This document shows, piece after piece, positions 34,989-62,415 of a stretch of 64,000 nucleotides of DNA. The stretch covers positions 11,711 to 75,710 of the forward strand of contig DAOQWY010000016.1 in NCBI GenBank assembly GCA_035342335.1, read 5' to 3'. This stretch comes from Bacteroidales bacterium. GTDB taxonomy: Bacteria > Bacteroidota > Bacteroidia > Bacteroidales > JAGONC01. Every line of letters starts with the position of its first letter. Position 1 is the stretch's first letter. The translations under genes were made by a program, and so were the position numbers. Below the pieces are notes generated by a model. The model did not search any database. It worked only from the letters and a program-made list of their open reading frames with translations, and was not told the DNA's origin.

Positions 34989-35615
34989 TCAGGATGTTCC
35001 TGACGAGGCTGGGTCAGTAACGCCATCTGAAGGTTTGCGGGCAACCTGGCTGCCTCCCGGAAGGTTACGGTAATATCGCCATAACCAGATCAGAAAAATC
35101 AGGAATCCAAAAAGAATATTCCATATATAATCGTGTACCTGATCAAACTGGGCCGGGTAATACTTTCCGATGTATCCCATGCTGACAAACCTGAGGTTAT
35201 TGATCACAAAGATCGAGGGCATAAAGATGGCCAGGGTGATCAATCGTTGTTTCCAGCTGACTGGTGAAAAAAGACTCAGGAAGATCGTAAAAATATAAAA
35301 ATTGTAGGCGGTACATTCCATGATGACGGCCATTTGAAAACCACCGACCCTCAACAGAGGGAATTCAGGGCTTTCAATAGGAATGAAAAAGATCTTGCCA
35401 AACAGAACAGCGCTCTGGATGGTAAACCGAACGAAAAAACCGATGATGTCATACTGGATGGAGGGCAGATGGAGGATGAACATCACGGCGGCCCACGACA
35501 AAATGGCGTAAAAAAGGGGCAGGAACTGCCGAAGCATCTGCCGGCGGGCTTCCTTTTTGGTCATTTTCTGCCTGGGCTGCGTTCTTATTTCATTCTTCGG
35601 TCTTCCGGCGGGCAT
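34989..35615 (-). CDS. Exosortase-family membrane protein, XrtF-like
   Basis: 208-aa polytopic protein with three candidate catalytic motifs in exosortase order: a Cys motif (VIMECTAYNF), an Arg motif (NNLRFV) and a His motif (VHDYIWN). An alternative start is M18 at 35564. Confidence 0.5.
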   Translation of the reverse strand: MPAGRPKNEIRTQPRQKMTKKEARRQMLRQFLPLFYAILSWAAVMFILHLPSIQYDIIGFFVRFTIQSAVLFGKIFFIPIESPEFPLLRVGGFQMAVIMECTAYNFYIFTIFLSLFSPVSWKQRLITLAIFMPSIFVINNLRFVSMGYIGKYYPAQFDQVHDYIWNILFGFLIFLIWLWRYYRNLPGGSQVARKPSDGVTDPASSGTS

Positions 35616-35755
35616 GGTTCAAATAGTAAAAATCAACTAGCAACTGGCAAAAAGCAAATTAGCTCACCTGGATTCATCACCTTGAAAGCGAAGAGCCTGT
35701 TTTTTCTCTGCTAAATTATAAAAATACCGTTGGATTTGATTTTGAAGTGCAAAAA

Positions 35756-36343
35756 TTAGCTGATGAGATCTTTTTCCCTGATCATTTTCCGCAGGTTGAT
35801 CAGTGCATAGCGCATCCTGCCCAGTGCTGTGTTGATACTGACGTCGGTCTGCTCGGCAATGTCCTTGAAGCTCATGTCGGCATAATGACGCATGATCAGC
35901 ACTTCCCGCTGTTCTTTTGGTAGGCAGTCGACGAGTTTCCGGAGATCGGCATGCACCTGTTCGGTGATGATCCTCTCCTCCACGGAAGCATCACCATAAC
36001 GCAGCGTATCAAAGATGTCAAAATCATCATGGCAATTGTCAACAACCGGTATCCGCCTGGATTTTCTAAAATGATCGATGACCAGGTTATGGGCAATCCG
36101 CATCACCCACTGGATAAATTTCCCCTCCTCCTTGTAGGTTCCCGTCCGGAGGGTGTTGATCACTTTAATGAAGGTATCCTGGAAAATATCATCGGCAAGT
36201 TCCGGATCCTTGACTACCATCAGGATATAGGCGTAAACACGCTTCTTGTGACGGTGGATAAGGATTTCGAGGCTGGTCTCATTACCGGATAAATACGCGC
36301 CGATTAGCTCCTGATCGCTAATTTCGCTAGTTTGCATAAGCAC
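35756..36343 (-). CDS. ECF-type sigma-70 family RNA polymerase sigma factor
   Basis: Region 2 is DIFQDTFIKV...FIQWVMRIAHNLVIDHFRK. Region 4 is REVLIMRHYADMSFKDIAEQTDVSINTALGRMRYAL. Confidence 0.85.
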   Translation of the reverse strand: MLMQTSEISDQELIGAYLSGNETSLEILIHRHKKRVYAYILMVVKDPELADDIFQDTFIKVINTLRTGTYKEEGKFIQWVMRIAHNLVIDHFRKSRRIPVVDNCHDDFDIFDTLRYGDASVEERIITEQVHADLRKLVDCLPKEQREVLIMRHYADMSFKDIAEQTDVSINTALGRMRYALINLRKMIREKDLIS

Positions 36344-39384: not shown

Positions 39385-40320
39385 ATGCTGAAGTCAATTA
39401 AAATCCTTGAAGACCAGGAAATAGAGAATATCCTTGCCGAACTGGACAGGCGCGTGGTGTTCGAAAAGACCAACATCATCCCCGAATCCCATGACCTCTA
39501 TGAACGGCTCCGGTCCTATGTAAAGTACGACAGGATAGGATTCAAATCCGTGCTGGGAATCGACATTTTCCAGTACAGCGGTTTCGGTGAATTTGAACAG
39601 ACCCTTCTCCCCTTCGTATTTAAAACCATCTTCAAAAGCACCATCCAGTTATGCCTGGAAAATCATCCCTATATCTTTCAGAAATACAACCAGGAAGACA
39701 TTGAAAAAAGTTTTATCAGCACAGGCGACGGAGGATTTCTCATCTTTGACACACCGTTTCATTCACTCGTATTTGCCTGCAATCTTGCGGTCATATTGCG
39801 TATCTACAACTCGTTCCATTATTACCCCAAATTAAGAAGGATCATAGGGGCCATCAATTTACGGTATGCCATTACCTATGACAAGATCAATTCCTTTGAG
39901 GACAATTATTATGGCAGGGCTGTGATCAACAATGCCCGCATTCTTCAGAAAGACAACCTCAACCGCTGTTTGATCGACGAAAACGTCTTCCGCTGGTTCA
40001 CCCTGAACATCGATGGGCTTGAGAACCTGCAGATCCTGACCATACAGGATGTAGCCAATATATATGAGTTCAATAAATATTATGACAAGGACTTTCTGTC
40101 CAAACGTCAGGATGAGATCTTTGAGAGAGAACCCTCGCGAAGGTATGGGATCATCAACTCGGACGTGCTTGAGATAGGCAAGATCCGGTCGAAGGAAGCG
40201 GAGATGAACATCTACAACCTGCATTTGCAGGTCACGCTCAACCTTTACAATGATGATGACCGGAAGCAGATGCGGACGATCACAGCCAGCCTGGGGAACC
40301 TTAATACGTCGGGGATATGA
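39385..40320 (+). CDS. Stand-alone class III nucleotidyl-cyclase-like protein with an unknown ~110-aa C-terminal extension
   Basis: 311-aa ORF. Motifs appear in the order of the cyclase homology domain: VLGIDIFQYSG (first metal Asp), ISTGDGGFLIF (second metal Asp), and LRYAITYDKI...NYYGRAVINNARIL (Asn/Arg transition-state pair). It lies 16 bp after uvrA, and its TGA overlaps the next ATG. Confidence 0.55.
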   Translation: MLKSIKILEDQEIENILAELDRRVVFEKTNIIPESHDLYERLRSYVKYDRIGFKSVLGIDIFQYSGFGEFEQTLLPFVFKTIFKSTIQLCLENHPYIFQKYNQEDIEKSFISTGDGGFLIFDTPFHSLVFACNLAVILRIYNSFHYYPKLRRIIGAINLRYAITYDKINSFEDNYYGRAVINNARILQKDNLNRCLIDENVFRWFTLNIDGLENLQILTIQDVANIYEFNKYYDKDFLSKRQDEIFEREPSRRYGIINSDVLEIGKIRSKEAEMNIYNLHLQVTLNLYNDDDRKQMRTITASLGNLNTSGI

Positions 40321-40348
40321 GAGGAGAGAGGAGAGAGGAGAGAGGAGA
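40317..40348. repeat. 32-bp polypurine element ATGAGAGGAGAGAGGAGAGAGGAGAGAGGAGA, with an exact inverted second copy at 26149-26180
   Basis: Base-by-base comparison of the two loci shows 32/32 identity. Both copies start at the stop codon of the preceding gene. Confidence 0.9.
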
Positions 40349-41213
40349 AAGGAGAGATGGAGGGTGGGGTGTTTGGGTTTTGAGTGTGATCATCCTGTTG
40401 GCCCTGATGGGGTGTTCAGACTGGAAACAGCCTGAAAAATCAACGATCACTGTCAGCATTTTGCCGCAGAAGTACTGGGTGGAGCGGATTGCGGGTGACC
40501 GGTTCGACGTACGGGTGATGGTGCCGCCCGGGGCCGACTCCCATACGTATGAACCTTCACCGAAAGATGTGCAGCAACTTTCGGAATCATCGCTCTATTT
40601 CAGCCTGGAATACATTGACTTTGAACAGAGTTACCTTCATAAATTCCAATCGGTCAATCCCCGGATGAACATCATCGGATTGCCGGAAGATATCACCCTG
40701 ATCCAGGATGATGACGGTCACAACGGGGTTGACCCGCATTTCTGGTTATCGGTAGCTGAGGTGCGGAAGATCATCAAAAGCATGCTTCAGCCGATCATCC
40801 GGCTGGATCCCGGACACGAGGACCTTTACCGGGAAAACTGCGACCGGTTCCTGCAGGAGCTGGATACGCTGGAGGCTTTTTTAGCACAAACGCTGGCATC
40901 GGTAAACGGGAAAACCGTGATCATCTACCACCCCATCCTGGCTTATCTTGCACGGGATTATGGTTTTTCCCAGGCAGCCCTGGAGGAAGGGGGTAAAAGT
41001 CCATCGGCCCATCACATGAAAGAAATCATTGATCTTGCCAGGCAAATGAATATAAGAACTATCTTTATCCAGCAACAATTCGACAGATCGATGGCTCAGG
41101 GCGTGGCAGGCGAAATTGGCGGAAAGATCGAAGTACTTGATCCGCTGGCTTATCAGTGGGTGGATAACCTCCGGGAGATTGCGCGTAAACTGAACCGTAT
41201 TTTTCAATCCTGA
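40317..41213 (+). CDS. Metal (Zn/Mn) ABC transporter substrate-binding lipoprotein, ZnuA/TroA family
   Basis: The lipobox is LLALMGCS. SILPQKYWVERIAG...PPGADSHTYEPSPKD...DPHFWLS are the metal-binding His/Asp positions. The true start is ambiguous: ATG 40317 lies inside the polypurine repeat, and TTG 40380 and GTG 40386 are alternatives. Confidence 0.8.
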   Translation: MRGERREERGERRDGGWGVWVLSVIILLALMGCSDWKQPEKSTITVSILPQKYWVERIAGDRFDVRVMVPPGADSHTYEPSPKDVQQLSESSLYFSLEYIDFEQSYLHKFQSVNPRMNIIGLPEDITLIQDDDGHNGVDPHFWLSVAEVRKIIKSMLQPIIRLDPGHEDLYRENCDRFLQELDTLEAFLAQTLASVNGKTVIIYHPILAYLARDYGFSQAALEEGGKSPSAHHMKEIIDLARQMNIRTIFIQQQFDRSMAQGVAGEIGGKIEVLDPLAYQWVDNLREIARKLNRIFQS

Positions 41214-41219
41214 CAATCT

Positions 41220-41978
41220 ATGGACAAACTCGTCGAGCTGAATAAAATAACGGCAGGCTACGGCAATCAGGTGGTCCTGGCGGATGTCAGCCTTACCATC
41301 CTTGACCGGGATTTCATTGGGGTGATCGGACCGAACGGCGGCGGAAAAACGACGCTGCTGAAGGTGATCATCGGACTGCTTGCCCCTTTGTCAGGATCGG
41401 TACGGTATTTTCCCGGGGGGAAGGACCGGTGTAACTTCCTGGGTTATCTGCCCCAGCTCATGCAGTATGATGACAAATTCCCGATCACTGCCCTGGAGGT
41501 GGTCTTATCAGGCATCCTGGCGGGAAACCGGCTGGCTAAAAAAATCACCGGGGATGACAAAAAACTGGCCACGGACCTGATGGAACAGATGGGTGTAGTT
41601 CATCTGCGGAAAAAGGTCATTGGTGAACTGTCGGGGGGAGAAAGGCAGCGGTTGTTCCTGTGCCGGTCGATCATTTCCAATCCCCGCCTGCTGATCCTTG
41701 ACGAGCCCGATACGTTTGTCGACAACAGGTTTGAGCATGATCTTTACGGGATCCTCCGGGAACTGAATGACCGCATGGCTGTAATCATGGTCTCACACGA
41801 CCTGGGAACCATCTCGGCTAATGTCAAGACGATCGCCTGCGTGAACCGTAACCTGCATTATCACCCCTCGAACATGATCACCGAACAGCAGCTGGCAGCC
41901 TATGATTGTCCGATACAGCTGATCACGCACGGGAATGTGCCGCACACCGTATTGAAAAAGCATGACCCATGGAACTGA
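41220..41978 (+). CDS. Metal ABC transporter ATP-binding protein (ZnuC-like)
   Basis: Walker A is GPNGGGKTTL, the signature is LSGGERQR, and Walker B is LLILDEP. Confidence 0.85.
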   Translation: MDKLVELNKITAGYGNQVVLADVSLTILDRDFIGVIGPNGGGKTTLLKVIIGLLAPLSGSVRYFPGGKDRCNFLGYLPQLMQYDDKFPITALEVVLSGILAGNRLAKKITGDDKKLATDLMEQMGVVHLRKKVIGELSGGERQRLFLCRSIISNPRLLILDEPDTFVDNRFEHDLYGILRELNDRMAVIMVSHDLGTISANVKTIACVNRNLHYHPSNMITEQQLAAYDCPIQLITHGNVPHTVLKKHDPWN

Positions 41979-42778
41979 TATTCCTTGATCTCCTATCCTA
42001 CCGGTTCTTTGTACATGCACTGGCAGCTGCAGTCCTGACAAGCATACTCTGCGGCATGATCGGGACATACATCGTTTCCAAAAGAATGGTCTTCATCAGC
42101 GGGGGCATTACCCACACATCCTTCGGCGGGATAGGGATCGGGTATTTTCTTGGCATACAACCCATGATCGGCGCCGCAGTCTTCAGTCTGCTCTCGGCCG
42201 TTGGCATTGAATATTTTTCGCGAAAGGGCGATATCCGGCATGATTCCATGATCGCCATCTTTTGGGCGCTGGGAATGGCTGTGGGGATCACCTTCATCTA
42301 TCTGACACCGGGATATGCGCCCAATCTGATGAGTTACCTGTTCGGAAGCATCCTGACCATATCAACAGCCGAATTGATCGCTTTGCTGGGTGTGACCCTT
42401 CTGACCGGGGTCATTTTTTCAGTGTTTTATCGTCCGATTCTTTATGTTGCATTCGATGAGGAATTTGCCCGGACGCGCATGATTCCCGTACAACTCATTA
42501 AGTACCTGATGATCAGTCTTATAGCACTAACAATCGTATTTAGCATCCGCATTGTCGGCATCATCCTGGTCATTTCATTGCTGACGATCCCACAGACTGC
42601 GGCCAACCTGCTGACCAGACGGTTTGACCGGATCATCCTCTATTCCATCCTGCTGGCGCTCTCAGGGACCATCGGGGGATTGATCCTGTCGTATTACCTG
42701 AATATCCCCTCCGGGGCGACGATCATTTTTTGCCTGGTGGTGATTTTTCTCACAGTACGGTTGACGAAAAAGAGATAA
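41969..42778 (+). CDS. Metal ABC transporter permease (ZnuB-like)
   Basis: 269-aa ORF with about 8 TM helices. It has a 10-bp overlap with the ATPase gene, which is the typical ABC-3 family layout. Confidence 0.85.
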   Translation: MELIFLDLLSYRFFVHALAAAVLTSILCGMIGTYIVSKRMVFISGGITHTSFGGIGIGYFLGIQPMIGAAVFSLLSAVGIEYFSRKGDIRHDSMIAIFWALGMAVGITFIYLTPGYAPNLMSYLFGSILTISTAELIALLGVTLLTGVIFSVFYRPILYVAFDEEFARTRMIPVQLIKYLMISLIALTIVFSIRIVGIILVISLLTIPQTAANLLTRRFDRIILYSILLALSGTIGGLILSYYLNIPSGATIIFCLVVIFLTVRLTKKR

Positions 42779-42782
42779 CCTG

Positions 42783-43430
42783 TCAAACCTGAATGATCCT
42801 GTACTCAACAGGACGGGGAACCCCCTTGAAGTCCTCAAGGTACTTACCGGAAACGAATTTCAGACAGCCCTGGTCCAGGGAAATCTTTTCTGAGGTGACA
42901 TCTTCCTGGACTTTTTGAAAAAATTTCTCGCTGATCACAATCCGGTACGGTTTGGCCTTCGACATCAGCCTTGCCGAAAGGTCCACGTCCTTTCCGTAAT
43001 AATCATTGTATCCTTCCAGAAAGGTCACATTGTACACCTCAGTACAATAATGTATGGCCACCTTACAGGGGAGAAAGAGATCTTCTACCGGAAAATTCTT
43101 TATGTTGTCGAGGGTTGCATAAATTTCCTCCAGTAACGCAAAGCACGTATGAAAGGTTGACTTGCGGTGAAGCTCCTGGTCAGGGATAAAAAGCATGATC
43201 TCGTCGCCGATTCCTTTGACAATGTTATCCGGGAAGTCGTTGAGAAGCGAGATGAAGTTAAACGTGTTGTTCAGTTTTTGCCCCCACCTGGTAAAGGGCT
43301 CACGGTATTTGATCCAGGTAGAGTCGACAATATCAATGAAAAGGCAAACTCCAGGGCATTTGGGCACGTCCTGAAGCACCCGTTCAATCCCGGCGGACCG
43401 GGGATCCTTGTCATGAATCCATTGAGCCAT
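42783..43430 (-). CDS. Stand-alone class III nucleotidyl-cyclase-like protein
   Basis: 215-aa ORF. Motifs are CLFIDIVDST (first metal Asp), KGIGDEIMLFIP (second metal Asp), and CKVAIHYCTEVYNV...YYGKDVDLSARLMSKAKPYRIVISEKF (the cyclase r.GihtG...yG..vn.AaRl...a....i.vSe pattern, with Asp in place of the usual Asn). It starts 3 bp after the STAS gene. Confidence 0.6.
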   Translation of the reverse strand: MAQWIHDKDPRSAGIERVLQDVPKCPGVCLFIDIVDSTWIKYREPFTRWGQKLNNTFNFISLLNDFPDNIVKGIGDEIMLFIPDQELHRKSTFHTCFALLEEIYATLDNIKNFPVEDLFLPCKVAIHYCTEVYNVTFLEGYNDYYGKDVDLSARLMSKAKPYRIVISEKFFQKVQEDVTSEKISLDQGCLKFVSGKYLEDFKGVPRPVEYRIIQV

Positions 43431-43433
43431 GCA

Positions 43434-43766
43434 TCAGAATTGTTTCAGGGCTTCCTCACGCGTGGGGTAAATTGAAAAAATGCTGGTGAATCCGGAAATC
43501 TCAAAAATCTCACGGATGTTTTCCTGCAGGCAGCAAAGGACGAACATTCCCTTGACGGAATTGATCTTTTTGAGGCCCATCAGCATGATCCGCAGCCCGG
43601 AACTGCTGATGTAGGACAAATCGTTGCAATCTACCAGAAGGTTATGCTGGTTGTCATCGATCAGCTTCATGATTTTCTCCTCAAGAAAACTGTAGTTGGT
43701 GGTGTCTAATCTGCCTTTCAGTTCAAGGATGATGACACCATCCTGTAAAATGTCGGTTATTTCCAT
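43434..43766 (-). CDS. STAS-domain anti-sigma-factor antagonist (RsbV/SpoIIAA-like)
   Basis: 110-aa ORF. LELKGRLDTTN...LLVDCNDLSYISSSGLRIML contains the conserved phosphorylatable Ser context. Confidence 0.85.
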   Translation of the reverse strand: MEITDILQDGVIILELKGRLDTTNYSFLEEKIMKLIDDNQHNLLVDCNDLSYISSSGLRIMLMGLKKINSVKGMFVLCCLQENIREIFEISGFTSIFSIYPTREEALKQF

Positions 43767-43771
43767 TGAAG

Positions 43772-44212
43772 TTATTGTTTGACTTGTTTCGATAAAAGCA
43801 GTCTGTTATGATTCCCGGCGCGCTCATAAGCATAGGTATCCATGATCTCACGAACGAAATGGATCCCCAGTCCTCCGATTTTTCTCTCCTCCGGCGATTT
43901 GTTCAGGTCACCGGGTACATCGACACTGAAGGGATCAAAAGCTTTACCATCATCTTCAATCTGCAGAAAAATCCAGTCGTTCCGGAGATACATCCGAATC
44001 ATGATATTATGGCCGAGATCGTCTTCAAACCCATAAAAGATAATATTGGTGATCAGTTCCTCCAGTACCAGGTTCAACGAAAAAATATCCCTGGAAGTCA
44101 GATCCCATGCCTCTCCCTGCTTCTCAACAAACGCACGTATCCTCTCAAGTTCCTGTATATCATTATGTATGATAAGATCAGCCGCTGTCATGATAGCCCA
44201 ATGATTCCGCAC
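43772..44212 (-). CDS. Anti-sigma regulatory factor-type Ser/Thr kinase (RsbW/SpoIIAB-like, HATPase_c)
   Basis: 146-aa ORF. The N box is LVLEELITNII. IEDDGKAFDP and GGLGIHFVREIMD follow. An alternative start is M8 at 44191. Confidence 0.8.
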   Translation of the reverse strand: MRNHWAIMTAADLIIHNDIQELERIRAFVEKQGEAWDLTSRDIFSLNLVLEELITNIIFYGFEDDLGHNIMIRMYLRNDWIFLQIEDDGKAFDPFSVDVPGDLNKSPEERKIGGLGIHFVREIMDTYAYERAGNHNRLLLSKQVKQ

Positions 44213-44390
44213 GTGTATACGTTATTCATCCGGTAAAGTTAATAAGTTTTGTAAGGTTTTTTTAGATTTTATGGGTAAAGTAAATAAATTAGGTGGATAT
44301 TTACCAAAAGATGGAATTATTTAGGCCAGAAGGTGATCTTGTGAAGATTCTCTTCATTGTGTATGTTCAAATTTTGTAAATTTCACCAGC

Positions 44391-47300
44391 ATGAATGAGA
44401 GCAGAATACCCTTAAATCCCTTTCCAGGCATCCGCAGCTACGAAATAGAGGAAGACTTTCTATTCTTCGGAAGGGATCATCTTATCAGGGAATTGGTCAC
44501 CATGTTGTCTGACACGCATTTTATTGCACTCACCGGGGCTTCCGGAAGCGGGAAATCTTCCCTGATCAAAGCAGGTCTGATCCCCGCACTGGTGAAGCAA
44601 ACGGCCGGTGAAGACACCGGCCGGTGGGAATATGCCATTTTCAGGCCCGGGGATGATCCTATCGGACAAATGGCTGATGCATTGTTTACAACGGTGAGAA
44701 AAGGGACAGGGAATGAAAGTCCTTACAAAGAAGCACAAGAGATTGAGAAGATCCTGCGCTCGGGCAGGGAAGGGTTCGTTGACGTATTTGAAAAGATGCA
44801 CACATTTTTTCGAAACAGTAACCTGCTTCTTGTCATTGATCAGTTTGAGGAGTTGTTCCGGTTCAAAAGCAATTTCACGGATTCAGTTGTCACTGCTGAC
44901 GCTGACCATTTGGTTGAATTGTTACTTTATGCGCTGGAACAGAAGGGTTTTCCGGTCTACGTCATCCTGTCGCTCCGGTCCGATTTCATTGACCGGTGCA
45001 CAGATTACCCGGGTCTGACAGAAAAGATCAACCACGGATATTACCTGATCCCCCGAATGACCCGGGAGGATATCCGCCAGGCCATAACCGGTCCTGTCGG
45101 CGTGGGTGGTGCACAGATATCCGAAAAGCTTGTCGGCCGTTTGCTGGAAGAGGTCAGCACTGAACCAGACCAACTTCCCATCCTGCAGCACGCGCTGATG
45201 AGGACCTGGGAAAAATGGCTCCAGAAACGCACCAGTGAGCCCGTGATCGATGAACATCATTACGAATCCATCGGGACGATGCAGGATGCCCTATCGCTTC
45301 ATGCCGAGGAGATCTTCCTGTCAATGAGTGATGCAAGGCAGCAGGTTCTGGCGGAAAAACTCTTCAAGGCGCTGGTGGTGGTGGGAGAAGACAACAGGGG
45401 CACACGCAGGCCGACACAGCTGGGGGAAATATGCAGCATTGCCGGCGTCAAATCCCAGGAGGTCATTGAGGTGGTCGAAAGCTTCCGCAGTCCTGGCCGA
45501 TCGTTCCTGATGCCACCCCCGGGAGTCTCCTTAAATGAGGACTCGATCATCGACATCACCCACGAGAGCCTGATGCGCATCTGGAAAAGGCTCCGGGTGT
45601 GGGTTGAAGAGGAGACTCAGTCAGCTCAGCTCTATCAGCGGCTTTCCAAGTCCGCCGAACTTTACCAGCAGGGCAAAACAGGGCTCTGGGTGGATCCTGA
45701 GCTGCACCTTGCCGTTAAATGGAAAGAGAACATCAAGCCGAACCAGGCATGGGCCAGCCGGTACGATCCTGCTTTCGACAGGGCCATCCAGTTTCTGAAC
45801 TACAGCCAGAAAGAAGCGGAGCTGGCCGTTGCACGCAAAGAGGAACACCAGAAAAGAGAGCTTGCCAGAGCCAGACGGTTCGCCATCATCCTTGGCCTGG
45901 CCTCGGTCGTTTCCATCTTCTTCCTGATCATATCCATCAATCTCACTTTCAAAGCAGAAGCCAGCGAGCGAAAAGCACAGGAGAAAGAAAAACTGGCCAT
46001 GCTTGAAAACCTTAAAGCTGCCGCACAGCGAAAGGAGGCCATCATACAGCGGAGAATTTCAGAACAACAGCAGCAGATAGCCGAACAACAGAAGATCATC
46101 ACCGAAGAGCAGAAAGAATTTGCCATTCAGCAACAGCAAATTGCGTTCAGTGAGCGTAAGGAGGCCATCCTTCAGAAACAGCTTGCCGAGGAAGCCAGAA
46201 ATGAAGCGGTACTTGCCCGGGACTATGCACAGGAACAGGGCAAGATCGCACTGGAACAAAAAGGGATCGCCGAGTCGGAAAGAGCCAAAGCCGAAGTTTC
46301 GGAAAGGAATGCCAGGAGACTTCGATTGCTTGCAGTGGCAAATGCCATGGCGATTAAATCGGTCGAAATTCAAAAAAGCGTAAAGGGTGATCTTCCTGCC
46401 TTACTGGCTCTTCAGGCTTATCGTCTGAACCGGCAGAATGAAGGATCACAGCAGGATCCGGATATTTTCAAAGCGTTGTCGGGTGTCAGTAAAGGCGATG
46501 CCATGCTCTGGATCCATCAGAATGAAGTGCGTTCAGTTATCGTCGGCAATAAAAGCGGAATCTTGTATTCCTGCAGCCTGGATGGTACGGTGAAGATCAC
46601 GGATACGGGCAAACCAGGCGAGCCTGTCCGTACCCTGAGCACGGAAGAGAAGGACCGTGACGAGTATTTCTCACTGGCCCTGAGTACCGATGAACGCTTT
46701 CTTGCTGCGGGAACCTATCACGGGAAGATCCTTCTGTGGGATCTGAATGACCAGGATGGGATGCCTTTCGTGCTGAACGGGCATACGTTCATTGTCACGC
46801 ACCTCAGCTTCAATCCCGTGAGCGGGGAGCTGGCCTCTTCCAGTGCCGACGGGAGCATCCGCATCTGGGATCCAATGCATGCCAACGATCCCGGACGGGT
46901 GATCGATCAGACCTTTTCAAGAATGACGGTCGTCTGTTACTCCCCGGATGGAAATGAATTGTCGTGGGCCAATGAGAAAGGAGAGATCAAGATAATGAAT
47001 CTCAAAAGCATGGCTGCTATCCCGGTCGTCATCCAGCAGGCAGGCGCAGCAGTCTATTCCATGGCTTTCAGTAATGAGGGAGACCTGCTCGCCTGCGGAG
47101 ACGGCAGCGGATCGATCCTGTTATGGAAGTCAATCCAGCCATCTGGCTCACCGGTTTCCCTGATCGGACATCTGTCCCGTGTCAGCGGTCTTAAATTCAG
47201 TCCCGACGGCACGACACTGGGAAGCTGCAGCTACGATGGCACGGTCAGGCTGTGGAACTACCTGTCGGCCGAGGAACCTCCCATCGTGATGGATGACTAT

Positions 47301-47513
47301 GATTTCTGGATCACCTGCCTGGCCTTCACGGCCGGTGGTGATAAACTGATCACGGGCAGCGCAGATAAAACGATCAGGATGAGGTTAATCAACACGGAAG
47401 TGCTTACACGTCTTTTATGTGCCGATCTTTCAAGGAACATGACCCAGGAGGAATGGAATCTTTATGTCGGGCCTGACATCGGTTATTCCAAAACCTGCGA
47501 AAATCTTCCTTAA
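44391..47513 (+). CDS. STAND-type P-loop NTPase - single TM - coiled coil - WD40 beta-propeller protein
   Basis: 1040-aa ORF. NPFPGIRSYEIEEDFLFFGRD precedes Walker A GASGSGKSS and Walker B LLLVIDQFEELF. The hydrophobic segment is FAIILGLASVVSIFFLIISINLTF (~residue 505). A Q/E/K-rich coiled coil of ~150 aa follows. About 7 WD repeats are present (SADGSIRIWD, SYDGTVRLWN, SADKTIRM). The C-terminus is SRNMTQEEWNLYVGPDIGYSKTC. Confidence 0.75.
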   Translation: MNESRIPLNPFPGIRSYEIEEDFLFFGRDHLIRELVTMLSDTHFIALTGASGSGKSSLIKAGLIPALVKQTAGEDTGRWEYAIFRPGDDPIGQMADALFTTVRKGTGNESPYKEAQEIEKILRSGREGFVDVFEKMHTFFRNSNLLLVIDQFEELFRFKSNFTDSVVTADADHLVELLLYALEQKGFPVYVILSLRSDFIDRCTDYPGLTEKINHGYYLIPRMTREDIRQAITGPVGVGGAQISEKLVGRLLEEVSTEPDQLPILQHALMRTWEKWLQKRTSEPVIDEHHYESIGTMQDALSLHAEEIFLSMSDARQQVLAEKLFKALVVVGEDNRGTRRPTQLGEICSIAGVKSQEVIEVVESFRSPGRSFLMPPPGVSLNEDSIIDITHESLMRIWKRLRVWVEEETQSAQLYQRLSKSAELYQQGKTGLWVDPELHLAVKWKENIKPNQAWASRYDPAFDRAIQFLNYSQKEAELAVARKEEHQKRELARARRFAIILGLASVVSIFFLIISINLTFKAEASERKAQEKEKLAMLENLKAAAQRKEAIIQRRISEQQQQIAEQQKIITEEQKEFAIQQQQIAFSERKEAILQKQLAEEARNEAVLARDYAQEQGKIALEQKGIAESERAKAEVSERNARRLRLLAVANAMAIKSVEIQKSVKGDLPALLALQAYRLNRQNEGSQQDPDIFKALSGVSKGDAMLWIHQNEVRSVIVGNKSGILYSCSLDGTVKITDTGKPGEPVRTLSTEEKDRDEYFSLALSTDERFLAAGTYHGKILLWDLNDQDGMPFVLNGHTFIVTHLSFNPVSGELASSSADGSIRIWDPMHANDPGRVIDQTFSRMTVVCYSPDGNELSWANEKGEIKIMNLKSMAAIPVVIQQAGAAVYSMAFSNEGDLLACGDGSGSILLWKSIQPSGSPVSLIGHLSRVSGLKFSPDGTTLGSCSYDGTVRLWNYLSAEEPPIVMDDYDFWITCLAFTAGGDKLITGSADKTIRMRLINTEVLTRLLCADLSRNMTQEEWNLYVGPDIGYSKTCENLP

Positions 47514-54324: not shown

Positions 54325-57300
54325 ATGAAGATACGGATGATGCAAAAAGTGATCGCCACACTCTTTTTCCTGACCACTGCCTGGGGATTCCAGGCGGGTA
54401 ACCTGTGCAGGGGACAGGAAGTTGGCAATCCTTTTATCAAAAATCTGGGGCCGGAAACATACAATGCACATTCCCAGAATTTTACAGTAGCCCAGGACAA
54501 GAGAGGGGTCATGTATTTTGGTAACTTTTCCGGGATCCTCGAATACGACGGGGACCAGTGGCGACTCATCCCAACTGAAAACATTTCCAGGGTTTCATCC
54601 CTTTCCATCGCTGCCAACGGTATCGTTTACGTCGGGGCAAGAGGTGAAATGGGCTACCTGTCACCCGATCCTTCCGGGAATATGGCATTCGTATCCCTGA
54701 ACGACCTGATCCCATCGGACTACAGAAATTTTCTGGATGTCCTGGGAACGTATGCCACCTCAAAAGGAGTATATTTTGTAACGGAACAGTTCATTTTCTT
54801 TTATGATTTTGACTTCATTCAAGTGACGGAGGTTGACGGAGGGGTCCTGTCCTCGCAGTGCATCCATGATACCCTTTATTGCTGGGTCGAAAACAAAGGA
54901 TTGGTCAAGTACGGCCACGGGCATCCGGAGCTGTTGGTCGACCGGCATTCCGGTGATGGCATCCTGGAAATCAGAGTCCTGATCACGGTGAACGACACGA
55001 CGTTCCTGCTGGGGACCGCCGGTCAGGGGCTTTTCTGGCTGAGAGGACGCGATGTCGAAGGATTCAGAACGAATGCAGGCACTGATCTCACCGGGATCCA
55101 GTTCAGGTGTGGAGTTCAGTTGCAGGATGGCACCTTTGCATTCGGAACAGAGAGGAATGGGATCATCATCGTGGAACCCGGCGGGAACATCCGGCAGGTG
55201 ATCAATGCAAAAAACGGCCTCAGGAACGATAATGTCGCATTCCTATACAAAGGCAGAGAGGGAAATCTCTGGGCTGCACTGAACAATGGTCTTGCCCTGA
55301 TCGCCATCCCATCACCCATTTCCTATTTCGTTGAACAAAGAGGGATCAGTGGCGGTGTGACTGATATAACCCGGATAAATTCGACACTTTTTGTTTCCAC
55401 TTATCAGGGTTTGTTCCATTACGACATGCCCGATCACACATTTAAATCTGTTTCCGGGATCACCACCGGATGCTGGGCGATCCTCCCTGACGATGATGGC
55501 CTGCTGGCCGCCACCAGCAAAGGAGTATACCAGGTCAGGGGACTCCGTCCGGTCCTGATCACAGAAGGGTCATCCTATGCACTTTGCAGGTCAGCGTTCA
55601 ATCCATCCATTCTCTATGCAGGACAAACCGGGAGCATGCTGGTTATGGAAAAAACAACGGGTCAATGGAAAACCAGAAGCACGGTCACCGGAATTAACGG
55701 CGAAATCATGGAAATCGCCGAGGAAAAGGACGGATCGGTATGGATGAATACCCCGTTGAGTGGCCTCTACCTTTACCGGCCAGCCGCATCAGCCCTGATC
55801 CAGCGATACGACACCACCAGCGGGCTTCCGTTCATGACCGGTAATCATCTCAGCAAGCTGACTTCCGGAATCCAACTGAACACCCGTCAGGGACTCTATC
55901 GGTACAATCCTGAAAGCAAGGCATTTGAAGTATTTCAACTCTTCCCTGAAGACAGCATCAACCGGAATATCTGGCTGAAGTCGACCGTTGAGGATCATCA
56001 GGGCAATCTATGGACCACCAACGGGGATGACAAAGGCATAACCTTTTACAGGAGGAACCAGGGTATCCTTTCCGAAAAGGTCACCACCCCGTATCGCCCC
56101 CTGAATGATCTGGTGGTATGGAACATTTACACCGAAAAAAACGGCATTGTCTGGTTCGGGGGACCCGACGGATTGTTTCGGTACGATCCCTCCGTTCACA
56201 CGCACCACGACGTGGATTTCCAAACGCTGATCCGGCAAGTGACCATCAAGGGGGATTCAACGGTCTTCCGGGGAACGTTTTATGACCGGGATGGCATCAC
56301 TGCCGGCCAGCCAGGTGAATATCCTCCGATGGCCATCGACTATGCGCACAATTCCATTCTGTTTGAATATGCCTCTGTCAGCATGCATGTCAGGGGAGAA
56401 AATGAATACCAGTACATCCTGGAAGGATTTGACAAAGGCTGGTCAGAATGGAGGAATGAAAACACCAAGGAATACACCAACCTGCCAAAAGGGGACTATG
56501 TATTCCGTGTACGATCAAAAAATGCTTACGACCGGATAAGCAATGACGCCGTATTCTCATTCCGGATCCTGACTCCGTGGTACAGGTTATGGTGGGCATA
56601 CCTGCTTTACGCATTGATCCTCGGCGGGATCGTCTACCTGATCGTCCGTCTGCGGTCACGTAAATTACTGAAGGAAAAGCAGGCGCTGGAAGAGGTCATC
56701 CAGGAGAGGACCACCGAGGTGGTCAGGCAAAAAGAAGAGATCGAGCACAAATCCCTGGAGCTGTCCGAAAAGAACTACGAGCTGGAGAGGATCAATAAGA
56801 CTGTCAAGTCAATCAACGAAGAAATCCACGTTGCACGTCTGACAGAATCAGTACTTGAAAAAATGAGCGCCATACCGGGAGTTGAAAGAGCTCTTGCCCT
56901 TGTCAGAGATCAGTCAGCACAGATCTTCAGGTACAAGGCTGGTTTTCAATGGGATACATCTGAGCTGGAAAACATTCAGTACGAGCTGGAGGAGGCCGAG
57001 GAGCGTTATTTGAAAAATGCCCTGGAAGTCCACGAGGATATTTTCGTCAAATCAGACCCGGTGAATCTGGCAGAAGCCCCTGAATTTAAACAGACAGGCC
57101 CACCCCGGTCGATGATCATTCTGGTTATCAAGGTTGAAGAAAAGGTCGAAGGCATGCTGTTATTCATGAATATGACCAGGGAAAATGCATTTGACATGCG
57201 TGACCTCGGATTCCTTAAGAATTCCAAGGAACATATCATCTCCGCATTCATCAAGTCCAGGATCCTGGAGGATCTTCAGCATACGCTCGAGAACCTGAAA

Positions 57301-58104
57301 GAAACACAAAAACAACTGATCCAGTCCGAAAAGCTGGCATCGCTGGGGCAACTGACCGCTGGCATTGCCCATGAAATCCAGAATCCGCTGAATTTTGTCA
57401 ACAATTTTTCTTCGCTGTCGATGGATCTGACACGTGAACTGACGGAATACATCGAAAAAGAGAAAGGCAATCTATCTACTGAAACGTTGGGAGATATAGA
57501 GGAAGTGATCACCATGCTTGATTCCAATGTGAAGAAGATCAACGAACATGGCAAACGGGCTGAGCGGATCGTCAAGGGGATGCTGCAACATTCCAGGGGG
57601 AAATCAGGTGAATTTCTATCCACCGACCTGAATACACTGGTCGAGGAATATGTTAACCTTTCGTATCACGGGATCAGGGCAGAGAACAAGGAGTTCAATG
57701 CCACATTCGTTAAGGATTTCGATCCCGGGGTGGGAAAGGTGAAAATCGTTCCGCAGGACTTCAGCAGGGTGATCCTGAACATCATGAACAACGCCTGTTA
57801 TGCCGTTTTTGAGAAAAGCCAGAAAAAAAAGGAGGGATATACCCCAACCATCGGGATCACAACGCAGCGGGCCGAACAGCAGGTCATTGTCCGGATCAAG
57901 GACAACGGTACCGGCATTCCGCAATCCATCCTCGATAAAATCTTCAATCCGTTCTTCACCACCAAGCCAACAGGAAAAGGAACCGGATTGGGACTTTCGA
58001 TGAGCTACGACATTGTGACTAATATACATAACGGGAAGCTGGATGTCATCTCCGTCGAAGGTGAGTCAACGGAATTCGTTGTCACCATTCCGGATATCAA
58101 ATGA
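54325..58104 (+). CDS. Sensor histidine kinase with a periplasmic two-component-regulator propeller + Y_Y_Y domain
   Basis: 1259-aa ORF with a signal peptide and ~700 aa of Reg_prop-type repeats. The Y_Y_Y module is [41 protein letters not shown]. The TM segment is [20 protein letters not shown] coiled coil and a GAF-like segment follow. The HisKA H-box is [15 protein letters not shown]. HATPase_c is DNGTGIP...GTGLGLS. There is no receiver domain. Confidence 0.85.
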
Positions 58105-58122
58105 TCACGAAGTGAAGAAGAA

Positions 58123-58749
58123 ATGAATGCGTACCTGATCCGAAGATCTTCTAACCTCGTGTTGCTGGCTTTCATCCTGATGACTGGAAAAATGCAGGCC
58201 CAGACCACCTTCATGATCCATGAATTCAATCTGATTTACCGGGGCGAGTTCAAACCCAGGCTTTCACTCAAGGCAGATCATTGGTTTACCGACCGTCTGG
58301 CCTTTAACAGTTATTTTTACGCCACCCCTAACTGGTCGGAAGGAGATGTCGGAATCGGTTATCAGGTCGCCAACTGGGCTTATGTTGGCTGCATGGTCGG
58401 CATTCAGAATGAAGGGGATCACCTGATGCGGATCATGCCGAACTTTTACCTTGTCAAAGGAAATTTTTCGCTGCTGGGCCTTTTCGGACACGGCATCGGT
58501 ACAGATACCGACCGTTTTGCACTGCAGTTCTTTTACAATTTCGGGTCCTTCAAGGTTGGAGCCGAGGGGATCAAGGAATTCACCATCCGGGCACTTGGAC
58601 CGCGTTTTGACTATACCCTGGTGGACGCGCCATCGATCCACCTCTGGGCTGCACCGTACTATGATTTTACCTACGACAAGTACGCTGCCATGTTTGGATT
58701 GTACGCCATATTTGGGAGCATCAGCCCGAAAGAAACACTTTTTGATTGA
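58123..58749 (+). CDS. Hypothetical secreted protein, possible small outer-membrane beta-barrel
   Basis: 208-aa ORF. The signal peptide is LVLLAFILMTGKMQAQ. Alternating hydrophobic/aromatic strands run throughout. No family was recognised. Confidence 0.4.
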   Translation: MNAYLIRRSSNLVLLAFILMTGKMQAQTTFMIHEFNLIYRGEFKPRLSLKADHWFTDRLAFNSYFYATPNWSEGDVGIGYQVANWAYVGCMVGIQNEGDHLMRIMPNFYLVKGNFSLLGLFGHGIGTDTDRFALQFFYNFGSFKVGAEGIKEFTIRALGPRFDYTLVDAPSIHLWAAPYYDFTYDKYAAMFGLYAIFGSISPKETLFD

Positions 58750-58841
58750 TAAAGGAGGAACCATAGTCAATTTAATGGATCGAAATTGCTATATTTGGAA
58801 AGTCATAACAGAATCACTTACCCGTAAACCAAAAGAACCAT

Positions 58842-60020
58842 ATGGCAAAGAATGATCCGATCAAGATCATGATTGTAGACGATGAGCTGGATCTGGAGAT
58901 CCTTTTCCGTCAGAAATTCCGGAAGCAACTCAAAGAGAGCGAATGGAGATTCGAATTTGCAGCGAACGGCCTTCAGGCACTGGCGCTCCTTCTGGAGCAC
59001 CCGGATACATCCATCATCCTGTCGGACATCAACATGCCCGAAATGGACGGGTTGACCTTGCTGGCAAGGCTCAATGAGCTGAAAAATCCTGCCCTGAAGA
59101 CCGTGATCGTATCTGCTTACGGAGACATGGACAACATCAGGACCGCCATGAACCGGGGTGCGTTTGATTTCATAACAAAGCCCATCAATTTTGATGATCT
59201 GGAGATCACGATCCATAAGACCATCGAACAGATCCGGATTCTTTACAAGGCAAATGAAGAGCACGAAGAGCTGGTTGCCCTGCAGCACGATTTGAACATT
59301 GCGGCCGAGATCCAGCATTCCATTCTTCCAAAGAAATTCCCGCCCTTTCCCGACCGGACCGATTTCGACATCCACGCCTTTATGAATGCAGCCAAGTCGG
59401 TCGGGGGGGATTTCTACGACTTTTTCCTGATCGATCAGGACCATATCGGGCTGGTGATCGCTGATGTTTCAGATAAAGGCATCCCGGCCGCCATTTACAT
59501 GGCGGTCAGCCGCACCATTATCCGGGCAGCCGCCATAAAAGGCCTTCCGCCAAAGGAGTGCCTGGAATACTCCAACCAGCTGCTCTGCAAGGAAAACGTA
59601 AACCAGATGTTCGTAACGGTCTTTTACGGAATCCTCAATACCCAGACCGGGGAGTTCCACTATACCAACGGCGGGCACAACCCACCTTATGTGATCAGCC
59701 GGGGAGGGATGGTCAGAAGCCTTGAGAAAACCGGCGATGTCGTGCTCGGGGCCATCGATGATGTGCCTTACCATCAGAAAAGCACAAAGTTCCAGCCAGG
59801 AGAAGCGCTGTTTCTTTACACCGACGGGGTGACAGAAGCCATGAATGTCAACTATGAACTTTTTTCGGAAGCACGCCTCGAATCGGCGCTGAAGGCTGCC
59901 AGTCAGAACACACCGGGTGAGATCATCCTGCAGGTTTCGTCAGCCATTGAAAACTTTACCCTGGGTGCTCAGCAATCAGACGATATCACAATGATGGTGG
60001 TGAGGTATAACCCAGCATAA
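58842..60020 (+). CDS. Response regulator receiver fused to a PP2C/SpoIIE-type Ser phosphatase (RsbU-like)
   Basis: The receiver domain shows IMIVDDELD...ILSDINMPEMDG...SAYGD...ITKP. The PPM domain shows GGDFYDFF...VIADVSDKGIPAA...YTDGVTEA...DDITMMVV. Confidence 0.9.
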   Translation: MAKNDPIKIMIVDDELDLEILFRQKFRKQLKESEWRFEFAANGLQALALLLEHPDTSIILSDINMPEMDGLTLLARLNELKNPALKTVIVSAYGDMDNIRTAMNRGAFDFITKPINFDDLEITIHKTIEQIRILYKANEEHEELVALQHDLNIAAEIQHSILPKKFPPFPDRTDFDIHAFMNAAKSVGGDFYDFFLIDQDHIGLVIADVSDKGIPAAIYMAVSRTIIRAAAIKGLPPKECLEYSNQLLCKENVNQMFVTVFYGILNTQTGEFHYTNGGHNPPYVISRGGMVRSLEKTGDVVLGAIDDVPYHQKSTKFQPGEALFLYTDGVTEAMNVNYELFSEARLESALKAASQNTPGEIILQVSSAIENFTLGAQQSDDITMMVVRYNPA

Positions 60021-60035
60021 AATCCCTGAAAGACC

Positions 60036-61160
60036 GTGCTCCGACTGAAAAAAACACCCTCCATCTTCAAAGGTTTGCTATGGGTCCTCCTTGTAGCGCT
60101 TATCCTGCTTTTTACCGACCGCCACAACCGTCATCCCGAACCCGGGAAGGGAAACAAGACCTATCAAAACCTTACCGTACCAATGCTGATGGATGATGAG
60201 ATCACCCCTGAATTTAAAGCCTATGTCAGAGAAGGGCTTTCAAAGGGATGGCCGGTTGAGCGAATGAGACTGGCCCTGATCGAATACTCCGACAGTCCCT
60301 TTACGGAATATACGGAAGAGGGCATAAAAGATGGGTTGAACAGGATTGGTCTGGTAGCAGATCAGGATTACCTGCTTGAAATCATGAATGCCCAGGGCGA
60401 CATCACCATGTTGAACAGTATCATGGATGTTGTAGCCGTCAAACCATTCGATTTTGTGATGACAACCTCCACCCCTACCCTTCAGGCTGCATGCAGAAAG
60501 CTGCCGCACAAAACCGTAATCTTTACCACAGTGGCTGATCCTGTTACTGCCGGTGCCGGAACAAGCTTTACAGAACACCGGCCGAACATGACCGGGATCT
60601 CGACCCTGTCCGACTTTGAAGGCATGGTCAGGCTGGTCAGGGCGCTGATGCCGGGGATGACAAGAGTTGGCACGCTGTTCAATCCGTCGGAAGTGAATGC
60701 CGTTGTGAACAAGGAGACCTTTGAATCCACCCTGGCCTCCAACGGGTTGACCCTGGTAGCCGTTCCGGTGAATGCTGCATCTGAAATCGGCAATGCAGTC
60801 CAATCGCTTGCTGCAATGGATATCCAGGCCATCTGCCAGGTCATCGATAACATAACGGGAGCAGCTTTCCCTCAGATCATCCGCGTGGCCAATGACTGCC
60901 ATTTACCTTACTTCACGTTTGACTCCCCCCAGATCAAGGATGGAGCCCTGGCTGCCGTTGCCAGGGATTACCACCAGGCAGGCATTGAAGGGGTTTACCT
61001 GCTGGCCAGGGTCATCGCCGGTGAAGATCCTGCAGCAATTCCCTTTCAGTTTGTCAGCAAGACCGATATTCTGATCAATAAACACGTTGCTGAAAAATCA
61101 GAGATAAAGATACCGGCGGCCTACCAGGCGTATTTGATTGAAGTGAAAGATCATGAGTGA
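60036..61160 (+). CDS. ABC transporter substrate-binding protein (ABC_sub_bind/COG2984-like)
   Basis: 374-aa ORF with a GTG start and an N-terminal anchor. RVGTLFNPSEVNAV...LVAVPVNAASEIGNAVQSL...ICQVIDN is the pattern of the uncharacterised-ABC SBP family. Family recall is unverified. Confidence 0.65.
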   Translation: MLRLKKTPSIFKGLLWVLLVALILLFTDRHNRHPEPGKGNKTYQNLTVPMLMDDEITPEFKAYVREGLSKGWPVERMRLALIEYSDSPFTEYTEEGIKDGLNRIGLVADQDYLLEIMNAQGDITMLNSIMDVVAVKPFDFVMTTSTPTLQAACRKLPHKTVIFTTVADPVTAGAGTSFTEHRPNMTGISTLSDFEGMVRLVRALMPGMTRVGTLFNPSEVNAVVNKETFESTLASNGLTLVAVPVNAASEIGNAVQSLAAMDIQAICQVIDNITGAAFPQIIRVANDCHLPYFTFDSPQIKDGALAAVARDYHQAGIEGVYLLARVIAGEDPAAIPFQFVSKTDILINKHVAEKSEIKIPAAYQAYLIEVKDHE

Positions 61161-62400: not shown

Positions 62401-62415
62401 TCGAAAGGCACGACC

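Follow-up and report, generated by a model that had tools for sequence, protein, structure and literature searches.

Partner switches are best known as regulators of sigma factors, and the Bacillus operons that encode them run in the order STAS-kinase-sigma factor, with the target beside its binder, the kinase. A few are described as gating diguanylate cyclases (GGDEF enzymes), among them the switches closest to the locus treated here. In Pseudomonas aeruginosa siaABCD, the phosphorylation of SiaC is controlled by the PP2C phosphatase SiaA and the kinase SiaB; in its unphosphorylated state SiaC associates with the diguanylate cyclase SiaD, which thereby becomes an active dimer (PMC7647112, PMC8457831). 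In a second system, it is the phosphorylated form of HsbA that binds the diguanylate cyclase HsbD (PMC5085249), and in Sinorhizobium meliloti BgrV is cited in PMC8457831 as acting on BgrR. Here we analyzed a three-gene operon in a stretch of 64,000 nucleotides (the window) from a Bacteroidales bacterium (NCBI GenBank assembly GCA_035342335.1, contig DAOQWY010000016.1, positions 11,711 to 75,710 of the forward strand). The operon encodes an RsbW/SpoIIAB-type serine kinase, a single-domain STAS protein and a stand-alone minimal class III nucleotide cyclase; the motifs of the three proteins are intact, the cyclase has the class III fold and its catalytic residues, and the synteny is conserved in related genomes. 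By analogy with the systems above, the cassette is probably a partner switch whose output is a second-messenger synthase and not a sigma factor.

The operon and its three proteins

The three open reading frames (ORFs) are packed on the minus strand in the order kinase-STAS-cyclase, with gaps of 5 bp and then 3 bp, just as an earlier note, made from the letters alone, had laid them out. The kinase ORF spans 43772..44212 (146 aa when read from the GTG at 44212), the STAS ORF 43434..43766 (110 aa), and the cyclase ORF 42783..43430 (215 aa, no sensor domain), with 4 bp between its stop and that of the convergent znuB. Upstream of the kinase is an AT-rich, divergent intergenic region of 178 bp (44213..44390), which from the gene layout is presumed to hold the promoter of the operon. 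This region gave generic sigma-70-like matches only, and no match to the Bacteroidetes-type promoter pattern TTTG...TAnnTTTG. The motifs quoted in the earlier note (SSSGL, FIDIVDST, GIGDEIMLF and YYGKDVDLSAR) are all present in the translations, and the profiles that it proposed for searching, PF13581, PF01740 and PF00211, all gave significant matches in the respective proteins.

The kinase matched HATPase_c_2 (PF13581) in Pfam with E=2.5e-20 and, weakly, the RsbW and SpoIIAB models of NCBIfam, and its best sequence matches in the Protein Data Bank (PDB) were RsbW (6m36) and SpoIIAB (1til/1l0o). Its N-box (LEELITN), G1 (DDGKAFD) and G2 (GGLG) motifs align with those of RsbW 6m36 and SpoIIAB 1til. 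Conservation across 59 syntenic kinases reaches at least 90% in the N-box, in the G2 motif (as GGLGI) and at the first Asp of G1. The family that the earlier note had named is borne out by the Pfam match, and the length of 146 aa is probably not the true one: because the public gene calls (18 contigs with an identical cyclase) give 139 aa and the kinases of the nearest relatives have 138-139 aa, the true start is likely the ATG at 44191, which gives 139 aa.

The STAS protein matched PF01740 (Pfam, E=3.9e-21) and, above the cut-off, TIGR00377 (NCBIfam, E=4.6e-24). SpoIIAA (1auz) can be aligned to it from end to end, and since the window motif ISSSGL aligns with MDSSGL of SpoIIAA, Ser55 is the predicted phospho-acceptor, equivalent to the phospho-acceptor Ser58 of SpoIIAA. 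The phosphorylatable SSSGL context, to which the earlier note had pointed, is shared by the family: among 65 syntenic STAS proteins, Y.SSSGLR shows at least 90% conservation.

The cyclase matched Guanylate_cyc (PF00211) in Pfam with 27.4 bits against a gathering cut-off of 21.9 (E=2.9e-6), and most of its homologs carry PF00211 too in precomputed annotation. This modest score is backed by the structural model, the structure search and the mapping of catalytic residues. The AlphaFold model, built on a 66-sequence alignment, has a mean predicted local distance difference test score (pLDDT) of 90.9 and a predicted TM-score of 0.88. In a Foldseek search with this model, all 50 listed matches were class III-type catalytic domains with adenylyl and guanylyl cyclases leading, headed by CyaB (3r5g), Cya2 (2w01), CyaC (1wc0) and Rv1900c (1ybu) at E~1e-10 and probability 1.0 (best E=6.9e-11; TM-scores of 0.64-0.80 on the target). 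The proposal of the earlier note that the 215-aa protein follows the class III catalytic core is thus upheld both by the profile match and by the fold.

Catalytic residues were mapped by profile alignment to CyaB 3r5g and followed in 66 aligned cyclases that are 57-89% identical to the window protein. First, D33 and D76 are the metal-binding Asp residues, and both are invariant. Second, K72 aligns with the Lys of the CyaB motif DKFVGD and D143 with the Asp of its MDY motif, and both are invariant again. Because this adenine-type K72/D143 pair, which predicts ATP as the substrate, is invariant, cAMP is the most likely product, and judging from these residues we consider cAMP probable. Third, R154 aligns with the transition-state Arg of CyaB and is likewise invariant. 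At last, D150 stands where CyaB has the Asn of VNLASR, so that the replacement of Asn by Asp in the N..AR motif, remarked upon in the earlier note, is real, and it is fixed throughout the 66 family members. The Asn of canonical class III cyclases contacts the ribose, and in mammalian cyclases mutating the equivalent Asn lowers kcat. The invariant Asp150 suggests that catalysis is altered or tightly dependent on a partner.

Outside the core, the cyclase has family-specific extensions of ~26 aa at the N-terminus and ~35 aa at the C-terminus, which hold the invariant residues P10, S12, F201, G203, P205 and R211. The family is small and narrowly distributed. A word-indexed search gave 499 matches, the best 120 of which, those listed, measure 188-235 aa and have 57-89% identity to that of the window, and an exhaustive profile search of 1.84 billion representatives gave only 274 clusters at 50% identity, almost all of them stand-alone proteins of ~200 aa. 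Among the longer relatives scanned, two carry TPR repeats and none is fused to a STAS or kinase domain. A relative of the cyclase was found in 114 of 185,579 species genomes scanned. The 80 best loci encode cyclases 53-88% identical to that of the window and come, going by their record titles, essentially all from metagenome-assembled genomes of Bacteroidota (Bacteroidales, Lentimicrobiaceae, Prolixibacteraceae and Marinilabiliales); the exceptions are one locus labelled 'bacterium', one Hyphomicrobiales and one Desulfuromonas, and the latter two are probably binning errors.

Conservation of the gene linkage

To describe the gene linkage, we used a set of 81 genomes, comprising the 80 best species loci and the window, and annotated the neighbors of the cyclase gene with purpose-built hidden Markov models. 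A STAS gene lies directly upstream of the cyclase gene on the same strand in 64 of the 81 genomes, with a spacing of 0-135 bp in nearly all of these loci. In 56/81 genomes the kinase gene is present upstream as well, which means that the kinase-STAS-cyclase triad of the earlier note recurs in dozens of species outside this genome, and this recurrence is far beyond chance. A PP2C phosphatase, the kinase and STAS all precede the cyclase in 43/81 genomes, in 22 of which phosphatase and kinase are fused in one ~800-aa membrane protein. STAS is the only partner upstream in 8/81 genomes; two of these eight loci have a phosphatase and a kinase on the opposite strand, and the STAS-cyclase pair stands without a nearby kinase despite 8-10 kb of flank in L020, L063, L079 and L080. 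In three further genomes (L024, L044 and L084) a kinase or phosphatase lies upstream and STAS was not detected, and in 14/81 the upstream sequence has none of the three partners. Counted by partner, the kinase accompanies the cyclase in 59/81 genomes, and an operonic PP2C protein of dCache-HAMP-SpoIIE architecture is found in 46/81.

The commonest form of the operon therefore has a fourth gene upstream, which encodes a dCache-HAMP-SpoIIE sensor phosphatase. For example, Pfam annotation of the genes called publicly at L002 and L004 reads dCache_1-HAMP-SpoIIE, HATPase_c_2, STAS and then the cyclase. This four-gene layout is scattered over a neighbor-joining tree of the cyclases, which suggests that it is ancestral, and the flanking genes change between clades; the conserved unit is the module and not the wider neighborhood. 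Kinase-STAS-cyclase alone is found in the window and in L006-L008, the three relatives nearest to it (cyclases 87-88% identical). Local variations also occur: a second HATPase_c_2 protein of ~500 aa is encoded between the small kinase and STAS in L004, L016 and L071, a ~500-aa HATPase_c_2 protein is the sole kinase detected in L015, and an FKBP gene separates STAS from the cyclase in L004.

No sigma factor was found within the operon, in the window or at any of the 80 species loci. A sigma factor as the conserved partner, the outcome that the earlier note had named as fatal to its proposal, is not what the loci show: a sigma factor of the extracytoplasmic function (ECF) type occurs ~7 kb from the cyclase, beyond uvrA, in only 11/81 loci, and we rejected a sigma factor as the hidden partner for this reason. 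Furthermore, clustering of the ORFs within 8 kb of the cyclase at the 81 loci revealed no further recurrent partner, no protein binding cyclic nucleotide monophosphates (cNMPs) and no phosphodiesterase, and no cNMP-binding or phosphodiesterase domain was found in the whole window.

Proposed mechanism and competing explanations

In the full form of the operon, the dCache-HAMP-PP2C membrane phosphatase and the RsbW-type kinase would together set the phosphorylation of STAS Ser55, and the STAS protein would bind and switch the sensor-less 215-aa cyclase encoded immediately downstream. The domains of GGDEF and of class III cyclases are homologous, share the palm fold and are active as dimers. By analogy with SiaC and SiaD, the unphosphorylated STAS protein would stabilize the active cyclase dimer, the sign of this regulation being assumed, and the cyclase would then most likely make cAMP. 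Because the window operon carries kinase, STAS and cyclase only, its phosphatase must act in trans, and dephosphorylation would be carried out by a phosphatase encoded elsewhere, possibly the REC-SpoIIE (PP2C) response regulator at 58842..60020 (+).

This response regulator (PF07228, E=1.7e-50; PF00072, E=3.8e-22) is encoded ~15 kb from the operon. Its PP2C domain is 41-44% identical to those of the operonic dCache-HAMP-PP2C proteins, and the protein is 68% identical to a REC-SpoIIE protein of L032, which is encoded 6 kb from a kinase-STAS-cyclase operon that also lacks a phosphatase gene. In the window it is the last gene of a plus-strand group (54325..60020) that starts with a sensor histidine kinase of 1259 aa (Reg_prop/Y_Y_Y, HisKA, HATPase_c), followed by a 208-aa ORF with no Pfam match. 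Its assignment as the trans-acting phosphatase for the window STAS protein, as a candidate substitute for the missing operonic enzyme, is speculative.

We consider it likely, from the conserved neighborhood and the described analogs, that the switch controls the cyclase at all, while we judge the chances to be about evenly balanced that STAS, rather than the kinase, is the protein that binds the cyclase directly. Direct control by STAS is favored over sequestration by the kinase because the cyclase gene adjoins the STAS gene and because these two form the most conserved pair (64/81). That the pair persists without a nearby kinase in several genomes, and that the kinase is fused to a membrane-anchored phosphatase in 22 genomes, both speak for STAS as a diffusible binder of the cyclase.

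Several observations weigh against the proposed mechanism. Everything in it beyond the identity of the proteins rests on gene neighborhood and analogy, and the invariant exchange of Asn for Asp at a catalytic position could mean a low or different activity. The window operon has no adjacent phosphatase gene; the 14 cyclase genes without partners remain so over 0.9-10 kb of upstream sequence (at least 5 kb in 12 of them); and 3/81 cyclases follow a kinase or phosphatase with no STAS detected. Moreover, the distant ~200-aa relatives P0127, P0129, P0132 and P0144, which lie on short contigs among other, unannotated neighbors, are without STAS or kinase neighbors. Because these relatives are not beside STAS or kinase genes, the coupling of cyclase and switch is confined to one Bacteroidota family.

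The main alternative, which is the model implied by the earlier note, is classical sequestration, in which the RsbW-type kinase holds the cyclase inactive until unphosphorylated STAS competes for the kinase and frees the cyclase. The earlier note had placed the cyclase in the output position of the sigma factor, and the operon does end in a sensor-less cyclase in a conserved arrangement, but the cyclase adjoins STAS and not the kinase. A kinase of RsbW/SpoIIAB type that occurs with the cyclase in 59/81 genomes would suit such a model, as would L024, L044 and L084, where a kinase or phosphatase stands beside the cyclase and STAS was not detected; there is also a precedent, cited in PMC7647112, in the Moorella stressosome, where the diguanylate cyclase MtG is bound and attenuated by MtT, a switch kinase resembling RsbT. 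However, the gene order is kinase-STAS-cyclase and not STAS-kinase-target, the most conserved pair is STAS-cyclase, which is kept in L020, L063, L079 and L080 without a nearby kinase, and 22 genomes have the kinase as the C-terminal domain of a sensor phosphatase that is anchored in the membrane. Such tethering is better suited to an enzyme that works on a diffusible STAS protein than to a factor that sequesters its target stoichiometrically, and we regard sequestration as unlikely.

A second alternative is that the genes are merely co-transcribed: the kinase/STAS pair would control another target elsewhere, for instance a sigma factor or a different enzyme, and the cyclase would be a co-expressed, parallel or downstream output. 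STAS proteins may have several partners, as HsbA binds FlgM, HsbR and HsbD (PMC5085249), and the 14 genomes that keep the cyclase without the module nearby would be expected under such an arrangement. The spacing of 0-135 bp between STAS and the cyclase is nevertheless kept across clades with completely different flanking genes, which is the pattern of a functional pair, and no alternative target is conserved nearby. We therefore hold mere co-transcription to be improbable.

Doubt can also be directed at the enzyme itself. If the cyclase-fold protein were a pseudoenzyme, it would be an inactive, nucleotide-binding adaptor that the switch sequesters and releases as its output; the ribose-contacting Asn that is invariably Asp, the Pfam score barely above threshold and the lack of a cNMP receptor in the neighborhood all fit this picture. 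Pseudo-cyclases usually lose the metal Asp, the specificity pair and the Arg, whereas here the metal Asp, the Lys/Asp pair and the transition-state Arg are invariant across 66 sequences, which is hard to explain without catalysis, so that an inactive adaptor seems quite improbable. Finally, membership in a Pycsar-like antiphage system, with a pyrimidine cyclase making cCMP or cUMP upon infection, was rejected as highly improbable: the match to the PADLOC PycC model (E=4e-6, 24 bits) is no better than that to the generic PF00211, the uridylate cyclase 8jsz that is the best phmmer match in the PDB (E=0.12) ranks 49th by structure in Foldseek behind adenylyl and guanylyl cyclases, the conflict-type nSTAND1-WD40 gene divergently upstream recurs in 4 close relatives only, no adjacent gene encodes an effector with a cNMP-binding domain, and the cyclase is a well-conserved gene among housekeeping genes and not a patchy island gene.

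Surrounding genes, significance and comparison with known systems

The gene divergent from the kinase (44391..47513, +) encodes a 1040-aa protein with an nSTAND1 NTPase domain (PF20703, E=4.7e-93), a coiled coil and a WD40 propeller. It stands beside the operon only in L006-L008 and L017 and is probably unrelated to the switch. On the other side, ZnuABC (40317..42778, +) is convergent with the cyclase in the window, L006-L008 and L032. Other metal-related genes were observed immediately downstream of the cyclase in several clades, namely a ZIP (PF02535) gene on the same strand at 18 loci, all from one clade (the L046-L082 clade), and a His-rich DsbD_2-like membrane protein in L038; PTPS/QueD is present in the same-strand downstream neighborhood at 12 loci. 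Because the 18 ZIP cases form one clade, the link to zinc amounts to perhaps 3-4 independent events, and the metal-transporter neighbors may point to zinc status or may simply reflect inherited synteny.

In this genome the znuABC operon begins with a 311-aa ORF (39385..40320, +), the end of which overlaps the start of znuA by 4 bp. The ORF gave no Pfam, NCBIfam or PADLOC match and belongs to a family of ~310-aa hypothetical proteins of Bacteroidales with at least 964 matches, the best 120 listed being 62-91% identical. Its AlphaFold model (pLDDT 85.2) matches class III cyclases, Ma1120 first (E=1.6e-7), and the family has invariant D60, G114-D115-G116-G117 and R185 and an extra C-terminal beta-rich domain. 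From the model, the ORF appears to represent an unannotated cyclase-fold family. The context of this family elsewhere is variable and of housekeeping type, and not linked to a partner switch. Both the 311-aa ORF and the nSTAND1-WD40 gene were rejected as parts of the module, since they recur in the 3-4 closest relatives only.

Further away, an ABC-transporter operon (60036..63354, +; ABC_sub_bind, BPD_transp_2) includes a protein of 415 aa (61153..62400) that starts with a STAS domain, and L015, L033 and L038 encode similar STAS proteins of 413-416 aa at a distance of ~2 kb from the cyclase gene. A minus-strand segment (34989..36343) holds the ECF-type sigma factor (35756..36343) followed by an exosortase/EpsH-like membrane protein (34989..35615); such a sigma factor is near the cyclase in 11/81 loci through shared uvrA synteny and is not an operon member. 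Two giant minus-strand ORFs, 4409..12634 (2741 aa) and 12806..22462 (3218 aa), both have InlB B-repeat-like (Flg_new_2), Ig-like, dockerin and fn3 domains and a C-terminal Por_Secre_tail, and presumably encode surface proteins exported by type IX secretion.

Bacteroidota encode many RsbW/RsbV-like pairs that have no obvious sigma target, and this operon would be one concrete answer to what such pairs control. If the proposed mechanism is true, the gating of a class III enzyme extends the logic of partner switches to cAMP-type messengers, the operon probably converts an outside signal into a cyclic-nucleotide messenger, and its four small genes without fused domains offer a clean minimal system for the trans-switching of a cyclase core. 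Gut Bacteroides were reported to be without endogenous cAMP (PMC12078602), yet at least 114 species genomes, essentially all of them Bacteroidota, keep this strongly conserved cyclase, mostly together with an extracellular sensor. Tentatively, and with somewhat less confidence than in its separate parts, we entertain a wider picture: the operon may be the first partner-switch cascade to gate a class III cyclase, in which an extracytoplasmic signal sensed by dCache would set the Ser phosphorylation of STAS and STAS would act as an allosteric subunit, with the exchange of Asn for Asp making the activity strictly partner-dependent or changing the product. Together with the second cyclase-fold family, it might then form an unrecognized cyclic-nucleotide layer in environmental Bacteroidales.

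Compared with described cyclases, the window protein shares the fold, the metal Asp residues, the Lys/Asp pair and the Arg with CyaB of P. aeruginosa, Ma1120, Rv1900c and CyaC of Spirulina. It is only 16-20% identical to them, has its own N- and C-terminal extensions and an Asp in place of Asn, and has no regulatory domain, whereas those enzymes owe their regulation to fused sensor domains or small ligands. PycC of Pycsar is also minimal, class III-like and of similar size, with a weak profile similarity to the window cyclase family. Unlike PycC, the window cyclase has no effector gene or defense-island context, is strongly conserved and is structurally nearer to adenylyl and guanylyl cyclases.

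Among partner switches, RsbU/RsbV/RsbW-SigB and SpoIIE/SpoIIAA/SpoIIAB-SigF of B. subtilis use the same PP2C, STAS and HATPase_c_2 families, with shared phospho-Ser and ATP motifs. However, the window proteins score far below the equivalog cut-offs of the RsbW, SpoIIAB and SpoIIAA models in NCBIfam, the order is kinase-STAS-output as opposed to STAS-kinase-sigma in Bacillus, and the Bacillus systems target a sigma factor, none of which is in or near the operon here. Closer in logic are HptB-HsbR-HsbA-HsbD of P. aeruginosa and, as far as it is described in the paper citing it, BgrU/BgrW/BgrV-BgrR of S. meliloti, in which a canonical STAS protein with PP2C/kinase-set phosphorylation directly controls a cyclase. 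The gene layouts of these systems differ from that of the operon, their outputs are GGDEF enzymes making cyclic di-GMP, HsbR unites phosphatase and kinase within a response regulator, and HsbD binds the phosphorylated HsbA.

The best working model is SiaABCD, with which the operon in 43/81 genomes shares the order of a HAMP-PP2C phosphatase, an RsbW-like kinase, a small phosphorylatable STAS-fold protein and a palm-fold cyclase; the window has the last three genes only. Several differences set the two apart. First, the output of SiaABCD is a GGDEF cyclase with a stalk and an I-site, and here it is a bare class III cyclase (PF00211). Second, SiaC belongs to DUF1987, has structural STAS similarity only and is phosphorylated at Thr68, whereas here a canonical STAS protein (PF01740) has a SpoIIAA-type Ser. 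Third, the sensor in the operons of the relatives has a dCache domain, unlike SiaABCD, and the lineage is Bacteroidota and not Pseudomonas. By this analogy, the operon would work like SiaABCD without being a member of that family. The literature searched gave no account of a module that joins a class III or adenylyl cyclase to a partner switch; its coverage was incomplete, so that this absence is not proof, and the matches to 'adenylate cyclase' that we examined were bacterial two-hybrid assays. The statement of the earlier note that no characterized module has this composition accordingly holds for class III cyclases and has to be given up for GGDEF enzymes, where SiaABCD, HsbA-HsbD and BgrUVW-BgrR are characterized analogs. 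As judged by these analogs, the gating of a nucleotide cyclase by a partner switch is established for GGDEF outputs, and the class III output appears to be new.

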